A DNA stretch of 64,000 bases, from positions 117,229 through 181,228 of the forward strand of contig CBDCMH010000008.1 of assembly GCA_965218935.1 (NCBI GenBank). Direction: 5' to 3'. This document shows, piece by piece, positions 3,001 to 5,124 of this stretch. Origin of the DNA: Acidobacteriota bacterium. GTDB taxonomy: Bacteria > Acidobacteriota > UBA6911 > RPQK01 > JADFOI01. Every line of letters starts with the position of its first letter. Within the stretch, counting starts at the first letter, position 1. Under the pieces are notes generated by a model that was given only the letters and a program-made list of their open reading frames with translations, had not been told where the DNA came from and did not search any database. The position numbers were made by a program, and so were the translations under genes.

Positions 3001-4939
3001 CGGGACTGCAGGCGTCACCTGCTACGACTACGATAACTCAGGTAATCTGACGCGCGTCACAGACGCCAGAGGCAGTGTGACTACCTTCGAATACGATACC
3101 CAGGATCGACTGATTCAAACCATCGACCCGTTGGGTCACTTTGAGACTTTCGCCTACGACGGCAATGGCAATCTCCTCTCGAGTACAGACCCTAAGGACC
3201 AGACGATCGAGTTTCAATACGATGCCGCAAGCCAGATGGTCAACAAGACCTTGCTTCCCGGGACTCCCGAGGAGGCGATAACGCATTTCGGGTACGACTC
3301 GTTGGGTCATCTTGTTTCTGTGGAGGACCCGGACAGTTCGCTCACCATGACCTACGATCCGTCGAACCGTATGGTTAGTGTTTCCACCACGGGCTCACCA
3401 AACCAGCCGGATGTTCTGCTTGAGTACACCTATGACAAGAATAACAACCGCGTCAGTATGACGGGTCCGACCGGTCAGACCGAGTATTTTTATGATGAGC
3501 TAAATCGCTTGACGCATCTTGTTCATCCCACGAGGCAGACGGTGACTTTCGACTATGACGCGCTGGGTCGCCGCACCCGGATGGTCATGCCCAACGGCGT
3601 GAGGACCCGGTACCAATACGATGAGGCCAGTAGGCTTTTGAGTCTGGTGCATCAACTGGGGGCGACCACGATCAACTCCTTCGCCTATACCTATGACAGG
3701 GTGGGAAATCGAACCGCCAGGACGGATAGCGCCGGGACGGCTGAATATAATTATGACGCACTGAACCGGCTCCTGGAGGCGATGAGTCCTTTCCCCTTCG
3801 ATCCTGTAGAGAAGTTCGCCTACGACGAAGTCGGGAATCGTGTGGACTCCAATCAGAACGGCCTCTCTACCTTCAGTGTGACCAACCAGTTGGAGGAGGA
3901 CGCCGAATTCTCCTACACCTATGACGCCAATGGTAATCGAATCCAGAAGACGGAGAAGGTGACGGGACGTTCGATGCACTTCGAATACGGTGCGGAAAAC
4001 AGGCTGATTGGGATCGTGCCAGAGGATGCTAGCGGTGTGAACTACCGGTACGACGGATTAGGGAGGAGAATCGAGAAAAACGTCGCGGGAGCTATCACTC
4101 GTTATCTCTATGACGACGAGGACATTTTGCTGGAGTTGGATGGAAACGACAACATCGTTGCCGTCTATACTCATGGGCCGGGCATCGATGAGCCACTGAT
4201 CGTGGAACGGGACCTGGATTCCAGCGGCACGTTTGAAGCCAGCGAGCGGTTTTTCTACCACGCCGATGGCCTGGGGAGTGTGACGGAACTGACGGACACG
4301 AGTGGCACCGTCGCTCAATCCTACGCTTACTTACCTTTTGGCCGAATTGGATTCCAGCTGGATCCTACTTTTGTCCAACCTTACACCTTCACTTCTCGTG
4401 AGTTCGATCCAGAGAGTGGCTTGCATTTTTATAGGGCCCGAACCTATGAGGCGATCACAGGTCGATTTCTCCAGGTGGACCCGATTGGATTCGCGGGTGG
4501 AATCAACCTGTACGCCTATGTCGGCAATAATCCGACGAACATCGTGGATCCTTTTGGGTGGGTGAGTTTTAAAGATATTTTCAGGAACCCCAAGGTTAAG
4601 GCCATAGGCGGTGCTGCAGCTGGGTTCTTGATAACGAAGCTGACGGAACAGTTGTGTCCCGGGCCGGCAAGAGGTTTGGTCAATCTCGCGGGCTTTGCGG
4701 TTGCTGTGGAAGCGGGTGTCTCGGCGACAGCGCTATCGGTTGCATCGGCTGTGGCCGCTTTTGGCTCCGTTCCCACAGGGGTAGGGGCGGTTGCGGGTAT
4801 TTTCGGTACGGTGGGCTTCGGAGCATTGGCGATTCAACAGGGTGTGACCGCAAGCCATTTTCTGGAGCAGGCCATTGAGGATTTTCGATTCAGCGGCGTG
4901 GATTGTGATCTTGTTTGTAACGAGGCCAGGAGTCAGTGA
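2..4939 (+). CDS. Large Rhs/YD-repeat protein (teneurin-like/Tc-like shell) with inserted 7x FG-GAP beta-propeller; 5' end lies outside the window
   Basis: The frame is open from base 2 (IDSLSPGSEINIWSLDPETGSF...), so the GTG at 74 is not the real start. Seven GDFxG(D/N/S)xxxDL motifs lie at about 820-1785. Many YD repeats follow. The Rhs core end is RFLQVDPIG...NNPTNIVDPFGW (4547-4561), followed by a 125-aa C-terminal domain. Confidence 0.9.
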   Translation: MDSLSPGSEINIWSLDPETGSFIIVGRGRVSEDGTVIETVSGGIHAADWHFLLPQAPTVNTPAESSENNSNNQDQSKCTDCAGGSRTAVSSGNLRIAHGLANYRSLGRSREIQLIYNSSRADPQPVVSAHTGVAAQAAVPGTLSSRLSVAGVDQAVEVFTDTSGLSAGVEVRQAVQFDAGSFQAGIYPYQLKLSGNYTRSSISTVLSGRVLVNNQQNSPAGAGWTLEGVGRLIKQDRDLLLTEGDGSARLFMATSSGSGAFSGLTPLALAGSAAGVAVGDFDGNGILDLAVATNFNVSILLGDTAGTFSGPRVFPAGELPRSVAVGDFNGDTLLDLAVANFLSDNVSILLGNGRGAFSRPTHFRVGDGPVSVVIGDFNGDAILDLVSGSSNHVSILLGDGSGAFSGPTHLAAGAVPRSVAVGDFNGDTLLDLAVANLQSGNISILLGDGTGTFSDPTHFRVGTRPVSVAVGDFNGDAILDLVVPNFLNNNVSILVGDGTGAFLGPTNYPAGSGPEDVVVGDFDSDGFLDLAVITGKSDTVSILLGDGTGAFSDPTRFTVGELPQSLAAGDFNGNAVMDLAVANGRSNNVSILRGVPSGQTGFRSPPGDFSILVENGDGTFTRTLKDGTRIHFGSEGLQRLIVDRNGNTTEFLYDANGRLISISDPVGRMTIFSYVGEWLRSITDPAGRRTRFEHDAVGNLIRISDPDGTSRSFEYDSRHRLIAQTSKRGFRTTYTFDFAGRNVGVRRPDGSTRGIASSETAGLVDSANGVGTPANPAPWVGSGDTESFFTDGQGGVTRFITDRFGATTATEDVLGRQTLIERDVNSNPTRITRPNGAVTAMTYDQRGNLLTSTEQAIDATTTFTYQSVFNQVSSVKDPKGNRTTLNHDTQGNLVRIVDAQGTGTVMTYDDLNCPGQRTSVTATVGLGEEHTTRFGYDPATCNLVSTVDPLFNETRLVYDHAGNVIESTDAEGRVTRFVYDPLDRLTQVVDAGHSGSDPRCGTAGVTCYDYDNSGNLTRVTDARGSVTTFEYDTQDRLIQTIDPLGHFETFAYDGNGNLLSSTDPKDQTIEFQYDAASQMVNKTLLPGTPEEAITHFGYDSLGHLVSVEDPDSSLTMTYDPSNRMVSVSTTGSPNQPDVLLEYTYDKNNNRVSMTGPTGQTEYFYDELNRLTHLVHPTRQTVTFDYDALGRRTRMVMPNGVRTRYQYDEASRLLSLVHQLGATTINSFAYTYDRVGNRTARTDSAGTAEYNYDALNRLLEAMSPFPFDPVEKFAYDEVGNRVDSNQNGLSTFSVTNQLEEDAEFSYTYDANGNRIQKTEKVTGRSMHFEYGAENRLIGIVPEDASGVNYRYDGLGRRIEKNVAGAITRYLYDDEDILLELDGNDNIVAVYTHGPGIDEPLIVERDLDSSGTFEASERFFYHADGLGSVTELTDTSGTVAQSYAYLPFGRIGFQLDPTFVQPYTFTSREFDPESGLHFYRARTYEAITGRFLQVDPIGFAGGINLYAYVGNNPTNIVDPFGWVSFKDIFRNPKVKAIGGAAAGFLITKLTEQLCPGPARGLVNLAGFAVAVEAGVSATALSVASAVAAFGSVPTGVGAVAGIFGTVGFGALAIQQGVTASHFLEQAIEDFRFSGVDCDLVCNEARSQ

Positions 4940-5124
4940 AACGTCTCTCGAAAAGACAAAACACTGCACTGATGACCCTGCCGATTGCGATCGGCGCCAT
5001 GGTGGCCGCGTGGGTGTTTCTTCCCGAGCGCTACTTCTTCTTTTTTTTGATAGGCTGGTGCATCTTAGTGACGGTCTGGGAATGGTATGTGGGGTCTCGG
5101 AGCAAGAAGAAGGATTCGGAGTAA
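4936..5124 (+). CDS. 62-aa two-TM membrane protein, candidate immunity protein
   Basis: GTGA overlap with the Rhs stop, two hydrophobic stretches and a Lys-rich tail. Confidence 0.65.
   Translation: MKRLSKRQNTALMTLPIAIGAMVAAWVFLPERYFFFFLIGWCILVTVWEWYVGSRSKKKDSE

Follow-up and report, generated by a model that had tools for sequence, protein, structure and literature searches.

A candidate membrane-depolarising toxin tip and its putative two-helix immunity protein at the 3′ end of an Acidobacteriota RHS gene

Here we examine a small gene cassette carried by a 64,000-nucleotide stretch of DNA from an Acidobacteriota bacterium (assembly GCA_965218935.1, contig CBDCMH010000008.1, forward-strand positions 117,229 to 181,228), called the window below and numbered from its first letter. 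The cassette has two parts: a candidate toxin tip of 125 amino acids (aa), which forms the C-terminus of a large RHS protein, and a small open reading frame (ORF) that overlaps the end of the tip and encodes 62 aa. The RHS ORF occupies positions 2..4939 of the plus strand, tip included, and is open at its 5′ end at the window edge. Its start lies 2,585 nucleotides (nt) upstream of the window on the same contig (L004:9416; L-numbers denote sequence loci of relatives, L004 being the contig of the window itself), which gives a full protein of ~2,507 aa. This protein opens with a hydrophobic, signal- or anchor-like N-terminus, followed by Ig-like domains (Big_13, He_PIG) and a CarboxypepD_reg-like domain; it also carries 7 FG-GAP repeats and 15 RHS-repeat stretches, and then an Rhs-associated core (NCBIfam Rhs_assc_core TIGR03696, E = 9e-23) whose model end falls at the DPxG motif, directly before the tip. 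In a PDB sequence search, the nearest solved structures for the shell are type VI secretion system (T6SS) Rhs proteins, Tse5 and teneurin-like proteins. With its Sec-type N-terminus and its Ig-like and FG-GAP domains, the carrier looks more like surface-displayed teneurin-like/WapA-like RHS proteins than like T6SS effectors.

At the end of the shell stands a DPxG-X19-DPxG aspartyl-protease motif that is intact, and the tip is therefore expected to be cut free and kept inside the RHS cocoon. The sequence up to the predicted cut reads ...NPTNIVDPFGW, and the cleavage point is predicted between W (4559-4561) and V (4562-4564). The features of the cassette, its carrier and a longer allele found in relatives are collected in table 1.

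Table 1. Features of the cassette, its carrier and the long allele of the small protein. Coordinates are those of the window unless a locus is named; TM, transmembrane.
Feature	Coordinates	Strand	Basis or remark
RHS/YD shell	2..4561	+	Pfam RHS_repeat PF05593 7.4e-98 (15 stretches), FG-GAP_3 1e-52 (7), TEN_YD-shell
Aspartyl-protease autocleavage motif DPIG-X19-DPFG-W	4478..4561	+	Sequence reading; Asp pair 23 residues apart
Candidate toxin tip, 125 aa + TGA stop	4562..4939	+	Codons 4562-4936, TGA 4937-4939; unnamed family
P-G-x-x-R-G turn, tip residues 33-38	4658..4675	+	Between helix 1 and helix 2; alignment
Glycine zipper G75-xxx-G79-xxx-(T/G)83-xxx-G87	4784..4822	+	Start of third long helix; column counts
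Immunity candidate, 62 aa	4936..5124	+	GTG start overlaps tip TGA (GTGA)
Predicted TM helix 1 of small protein, residues 13-30, LPIA motif	4972..5025	+	Hydropathy 1.9 (15-residue windows), alignment
Predicted TM helix 2 of small protein, residues 34-51	5035..5088	+	Hydropathy up to 2.39; after 3-4-residue loop PERY
129-aa allele	L028:1277-1666, L029:1030-1419, L025:4103-4492, L026:25-414, L003:1-270		

A sequence-only reading of this DNA, made from the letters and a list of their ORFs, had described a 125-aa, Gly/Ala-rich and largely uncharged domain behind a DPFGW motif. Both its coordinates and its description proved exact: Ala, Gly and Val make up 17.6%, 12.8% and 12.0% of the tip, and E50 is the sole charged residue from R37 to H99. 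The ends of the tip are charged, and its hydrophobicity is moderate (Ala/Gly/Ser-rich). That reading had also seen no nuclease, deaminase or ADP-ribosyltransferase motif, and indeed the tip has no significant Pfam or NCBIfam match (best E = 0.3) and no catalytic-domain match there or in PDB sequences. Profiles of the tip (A1, A6) and of the small protein (A5) returned chance matches only (E >= 0.055) when compared with all PDB chain sequences. Of the searches that the reading had proposed, those with sequences and profiles found distant homologs of both proteins but no named family, and Foldseek found no match for the tip model.

An exhaustive phmmer search of 1.84 billion cluster-representative proteins recovered 15 representatives of the tip family at E <= 1e-3 (best E-value 2e-51), some of them close relatives or fragments (71-83% identity) and ten at 33-42%. 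Distant members overall share 28-42% identity with the tip, and those with upstream sequence stand directly behind an RHS core that closes with a DPxGL-type motif. For one member the label gives a Deltaproteobacteria metagenome-assembled genome as its source, so more than one lineage carries the family. Elsewhere the tip is scarce: a search of 400 same-phylum genomes gave its own copy only, plus one weak match containing stop codons, and it was found neither in pattern scans of 185,579 species genomes (with the single tip and with a distant-clade alignment) nor by tblastn on 72,556 plasmids. Base composition revealed no GC anomaly across it. From these comparisons, the tip represents a real, rare and unnamed family.

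Conservation within the family is concentrated at a few sites. In 13 members, G34, R37 and G38 of the P-G-x-x-R-G turn are invariant, as are A66 and A104, and an (A)LEDF motif is conserved. The four zipper columns (75, 79, 83 and 87) hold Gly in fractions of 0.92, 0.85, 0.77 and 0.54 and small residues in fractions of 1.0, 1.0, 0.92 and 0.85. Helix 2 carries a conserved, continuous small-residue face (positions 44, 48, 51, 55, 59, 62, 66 and 69), and Kyte-Doolittle maxima over 19 residues reach 1.5-2.05 across all members. Two AlphaFold2 runs, using 10- and 11-sequence alignments, gave all-helical models that agree in secondary structure: helices at residues 10-30, 35-68 and 73-109, a further two that are short, and interruptions where the invariant turns lie.

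The second part of the cassette had been read from the sequence as a GTGA-coupled ORF with two TM segments, and it stands as described: a GTG at 4936 overlaps the TGA of the tip, and the 62-aa product has two hydrophobic segments. Its termini are basic (MKRLSKRQ at the N-terminus, SRSKKKDSE at the C-terminus), and by the positive-inside rule the product is predicted to form a hairpin of two helices in the inner membrane, its N- and C-termini both facing the cytoplasm. A glutamate in the second helix, Glu49 (5080-5082), is conserved in the family. In alignment A3, F34, L44 and E49 are invariant, while in the MAFFT alignment A5 the Glu of L024 lies two columns off and nothing is invariant beyond Met1, so the equivalence of E49 is a by-eye reading. 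The start position is conserved as well (ATG in most relatives, GTG in three). Close homologs have been called as genes in metagenomes seven times, and a profile search found 23 family members. Comparing the window with each relative gives ratios of nonsynonymous to synonymous substitution rates (dN/dS) of 0.11-0.18, and the full set of pairs spans 0.11-0.53, so the small ORF is a real coding gene under purifying selection. It has no Pfam or NCBIfam match above threshold (sub-threshold matches to TauE and DUF2208 only), and no promoter-like site or convincing terminator was seen between or after the tip and the small ORF.

The end of this gene varies in relatives. Its final ~60 nt (window 5059-5139) are duplicated there, with the copies flanking inserted cassettes: in L003 (4-53, 509-722 and 2174-2229) the insertion is an AAA_14/DUF4143 ATPase gene, and in L005 (106-495 and 964-1500) an 84-aa ORF resembling a helix-turn-helix protein. 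The end of the small ORF thus looks like a recurrent insertion site.

The evidence that carries most weight is the linkage of the two genes. The sequence-only reading had named linkage of the small ORF to homologs of the tip among the points on which a toxin/immunity pair should be judged, and the linkage was found in every lineage that could be read. Eight tip lineages come with downstream DNA (the window, L002, L027, L028/L029, L024, L012/L014, L015-L017 and L018-L020/L023), and in 8/8 the next gene encodes a homologous two-TM protein, either of 57-75 aa or in a 129-aa long form, placed 9-58 nt downstream of the tip or overlapping it by 4 nt. Identity to the window tip, as global pairwise values, falls from 80% (L002, partner of 62 aa) through ~71% (L028/L029, 129-aa long form, ATGA overlap) and 58% (L027, 61 aa, GTGA overlap) to 37% (L018-L020/L023, 75 aa), 36% (L024, 57 aa), 31% (L012/L014, 67 aa) and 28% (L015-L017, 69 aa); in MAFFT alignments the L028 type shares 70-74% with the window tip, and the four distant lineages share 28-35%. 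The partners share one layout, namely a basic N-terminus, a first TM helix, a loop of 3-5 residues (typically LP-x-x-x-F), a second TM helix ending in the conserved Glu, and a basic tail. Even a distant pair such as the window ORF and that of L012 retains 37% identity (BLASTP E = 2e-10). Moreover, tip identity and partner identity are correlated (r = 0.90 over 28 pairs, which are not phylogenetically independent), and the partner can diverge faster; for example, L012 and L015 share 83% identity in the tip and 58% in the partner. The conservation of the gene pair shows that the tip and the small ORF are inherited as one unit.

Rearranged loci speak to the same unit. In L006 and L025, related RHS shells carry other tips and other membrane-protein genes, which are followed by a 3′ stub of the studied tip and an intact small gene; from 4828 onwards the DNA of L006 is again homologous to the window, so that the last 36 tip codons (4828-4936) remain. 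Such a stub with an intact small gene is the textbook signature of classic RHS tip displacement with retention of immunity. L005 likewise holds only the 3′ half of the tip with the small ORF, and in L012, L015 and L018 the tip and its partner form stand-alone orphan modules that start near the DPxGL motif.

The tip family that occupies L006:1-1419 and L025:2-3762 has a DPSGE/DPSGQ boundary and Ala/Gly-rich ends and is followed by membrane-protein genes of 123, 112 and 97 aa; it is presumably another membrane-type toxin/immunity cassette that displaced the studied one. The orphan modules at L012:1-4618 and L015:1-4657 closely follow a DnaG-like primase (~930 aa) and a tandem pair of tyrosine recombinases on the downstream side, which suggests that they are carried on a mobile element. 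L018:931-4660 is an array in which an RHS fragment, whose long tip is Gly-rich and hydrophobic, is joined by three genes for polytopic membrane proteins (181, 247 and 134 aa) and then by the orphan module (124 + 75 aa).

The long form of the partner deserves separate attention. A profile search with the small protein returned many 129-aa proteins, which match the window ORF at 79-84% identity over their first ~57 residues and then continue into an NfeD OB-fold (PF01957, E = 2.6e-12 for the L003 fragment). This form occupies the same 4-nt-overlap position behind full-length tips (L028, L029) and also stands behind orphan stubs (L025, L026), and in L003 a long and a short copy lie in tandem. Its N-terminal TM helices and C-terminal OB-fold make it similar to the short NfeD proteins YbbJ and YuaF, from which the 62-aa window protein differs by the complete absence of the OB domain. 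There is no PF01957 domain in the window protein and no NfeD-coding DNA downstream of it in the window, every distant partner (L012, L015, L018, L024) is short and free of NfeD, and no SPFH gene adjoins the 129-aa or any other allele in the loci read. For these reasons we take the short hairpin to be the norm in the family, and the NfeD fusion to be a variant specific to one clade. A frameshift in an NfeD gene was also considered as the origin of the 62-aa ORF and was rejected, because no NfeD-coding DNA follows in the window and the distant partners are short throughout. A literature search for NfeD together with immunity protein and toxin brought up no apparent fusion of this kind. Given that hairpin and NfeD-fused alleles are interchangeable behind the same toxin, protection (and perhaps toxin action) might involve SPFH/stomatin-type membrane scaffolds or associated proteases. 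We think this quite unlikely; if true, immunity would work in a way that has been described for no polymorphic toxin.

Taken together, the cassette is best explained as a polymorphic-toxin module attached to the 3′ end of the gene for a Sec-exported RHS/FG-GAP protein, and the tip and the small ORF very probably constitute a toxin and its immunity protein. The sequence features by which Rhs-CT/RhsI modules are recognised among RHS proteins can be read here: a YD/RHS shell, a core and motif before the tip, varying tips with orphan remnants, and a co-inherited downstream gene. We further propose that the tip probably depolarises the membrane of rival bacteria, to judge from its hydrophobic helical hairpin, its conserved glycine zipper and the almost wholly intramembrane nature of the candidate immunity protein. 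The 62-aa protein has almost no extramembrane mass and so could act only by intramembrane helix packing, and a partner confined to the membrane argues that the active state of the toxin is itself embedded there.

In the proposed mechanism, the tip would be cut at W|V and held in the RHS cocoon until it reaches the periplasm of a rival. Its two long, small-residue-rich helices (~38-68 and ~73-93) would then insert into the cytoplasmic membrane as a hairpin, and several hairpins would oligomerise via the GxxxGxxxGxxxG face into an ion-conducting assembly that dissipates the membrane potential. In the producer and its kin, the translationally coupled 62-aa hairpin would neutralise the tip by helix-helix contact within the bilayer. 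The tip and the small protein would thus most likely serve to kill rivals by breaching the inner membrane, which is a familiar kind of weapon.

How familiar becomes clear from comparison with known systems. Tse5 (RhsP1, PA2684) of Pseudomonas aeruginosa has a DPXGX19DPXG motif whose catalytic Asp residues D1141 and D1164 are required for toxin release (PMC10684867). Its C-terminal toxin, Tse5-CT, is encapsulated by RHS repeats, depolarises cells and forms ion-selective pores, and the cognate Tsi5 has two predicted TM helices (PMC9637101). The window protein shares with Tse5 the RHS cocoon and an identical DPXG-X19-DPXG spacing. In both, a C-terminal fragment of 125-150 aa has predicted TM or amphipathic helices and no enzymatic signature, and a gene beside the toxin encodes two TM helices; this last resemblance to Tsi5 was drawn by description and is not one of homology. 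The two differ in their route: Tse5 is PAAR-like and delivered through VgrG and the T6SS, whereas the window protein has a Sec-type N-terminus with Ig-like/FG-GAP domains in a genome without TssC and Hcp. Tip profiles A1 and A6 gave no match to Tse5 at E <= 10 among PDB chains, even though 8cp6 and 9i9y are present there (the presence of a chain with residues 1169-1317 is unconfirmed).

The contact-dependent growth inhibition (CDI) ionophore toxins offer a second parallel. These have helical membrane-spanning domains with a glycine zipper as their sole common element, and their CdiI partners are two-helix proteins of 72-100 aa with cytoplasmic termini (PMC11630599). As in the window cassette, a glycine-zipper helix within an all-helical domain is paired with a small two-helix immunity hairpin, and toxin and immunity are highly polymorphic and co-diverge, with immunity changing faster. 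On the other hand, CDI toxins sit on CdiA after VENN, while the window tip sits on an RHS protein after a DPxGL-type boundary (DPFGW) and without a separate entry domain. The pore-forming colicins (A, E1, Ia, N) and their Cai/Cni-type immunity proteins follow the same logic, in that an Ala-rich hydrophobic hairpin is neutralised in the membrane by a small integral protein. The colicin pore domain consists of ten helices in ~200 aa, compared with three long helices in ~125 aa for the window tip, and colicin immunity proteins have 3-4 TM helices. No colicin pore-domain match was found for the tip in Pfam (E <= 1) or by Foldseek against the PDB (E < 1, with low-confidence models). We therefore describe the cassette as functionally like Tse5, the CDI ionophores and the colicins by analogy, its relatedness to them being without sequence support.

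Several observations weigh against a depolarising tip of this kind. Neither in sequence nor in fold was the tip found to resemble a characterised pore former, whether by profiles against the PDB, by hhalign against CT-EC93 or by Foldseek. In hhalign, the tip aligned to CdiA-CT of Escherichia coli EC93 with a probability of ~1% (E = 0.055, 27 columns around P-A-R-G-L) and the small ORF to CdiI-EC93 with a probability of 0.2%, each comparison using a single template sequence, which limited its sensitivity (sequences from NZ_CP061330). Confidence in the tip models is low (predicted local distance difference test, pLDDT, 55.6 and 61.2), so that only their secondary structure is usable, and neither model found anything at E < 1 when compared with the PDB by Foldseek. 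The moderate hydrophobicity of the tip is compatible with a soluble helical bundle. At the cleavage site, Trp takes the place of the usual Leu: DPxGL is the canonical form, DPFGL is found in close relatives, and the P1 Trp (4559-4561) was seen in this genome only, with Leu in all relatives read. The delivery route raises its own difficulty, as the 93.6%-complete genome contains no TssC (PF05943) and no Hcp (PF05638), and the RHS protein of the window holds its sole RHS core.

Two minor matches belong beside these results. The P-A-R-G-L-(V/L) stretch aligned by hhalign lies before the first hydrophobic helix (window 4664-4681; L031:41868-41885 in CdiA-CT EC93), and the match is probably due to chance. 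Alpha-pore-forming toxins and MotA/ExbB stators appeared near the top of the Foldseek lists; these were not significant and were not used.

Other explanations have to be weighed against the same data. The tip and its partner could be toxin and immunity protein and act at the membrane, yet form no pore. The tip would then bind and block, or hijack, an integral membrane protein (e.g. a transporter, a lipid-carrier enzyme, or part of the Sec or respiratory machinery), and the two-TM protein would compete for that contact or shield it. The linkage and the orphan modules would apply equally to such a pair, the invariant polar motifs (PGxxRG, D93, EDF) resemble a specific interaction surface more than a generic hydrophobic hairpin, and CDI ionophores themselves require specific membrane-protein receptors (PMC11630599). 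We nonetheless consider it unlikely, as a family-wide glycine zipper and two long, small-residue-rich helices are hallmarks of self-associating channel formers and Pfam/NCBIfam scans gave no sign of an enzymatic or binding domain. A soluble helical-bundle toxin with a cytoplasmic target, stopped at the inner membrane by a small membrane protein that blocks its passage, would fit the only moderate hydrophobicity and charged ends of the tip and the three-helix bundle into which AlphaFold2 packs it (predicted template modelling score, pTM, 0.38-0.42). This is very unlikely in our judgement: the tip has neither a catalytic motif nor a family match, and RHS/CDI immunity proteins against soluble toxins are normally soluble binders, whereas here the partner is almost wholly intramembrane in 8/8 lineages.

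The last alternative holds that there is no toxin module at all, the small ORF being a truncated housekeeping NfeD-type protein that lies downstream by chance and the tip a structural or anchoring RHS tail. What speaks for it is the 129-aa allele of close relatives, where the same two TM helices (79-84% identical) are fused to the PF01957 OB-fold. Against this, the four distant partners are all short and lack the NfeD domain, and the 129-aa form keeps its 4-nt-overlap position behind full tips (L028, L029) rather than standing beside an SPFH gene. Furthermore, tip and small ORF move together as orphan modules in unrelated contexts, and the short form is constant in length, with purifying selection acting on it. 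The absence of a toxin module is thus highly improbable, and a membrane-depolarising toxin with its immunity protein remains our preferred account.

The sequence-only reading had called the pair possibly new, which holds for the sequence family and fails for the kind of weapon. That is, novelty is confined to the sequence family, the weapon type being already known from Tse5-CT/Tsi5 (PMC9637101) and the CDI ionophores (PMC11630599); only the NfeD-fused allele and the T6SS-independent carrier are unusual. The cassette would nevertheless enlarge the set of RHS cargoes by an uncatalogued toxin domain and its cognate family of immunity proteins, neither of which has a relative in Pfam, NCBIfam or the PDB. 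The compact toxin signature (PGxxRG turn, glycine zipper, LEDF end) could seed a family model, and the small size of the cassette (125 + 62 aa) makes it a tractable system for studying how a two-helix protein recognises a toxin within the membrane. In addition, a lineage without T6SS that carries a surface-type Ig/FG-GAP RHS protein bears on how such proteins deliver their cargo across two diderm envelopes.

Just beyond the cassette, positions 5250-5597 of the window encode a 115-aa protein without a Pfam match, which has a signal peptide and an extremely His/Arg/Asp/Gly-rich body (MKVFKFIPILAVALLIPSFAEAQ...). In L002, L006 and L026 the protein is conserved too, again a short way downstream of the cassette.

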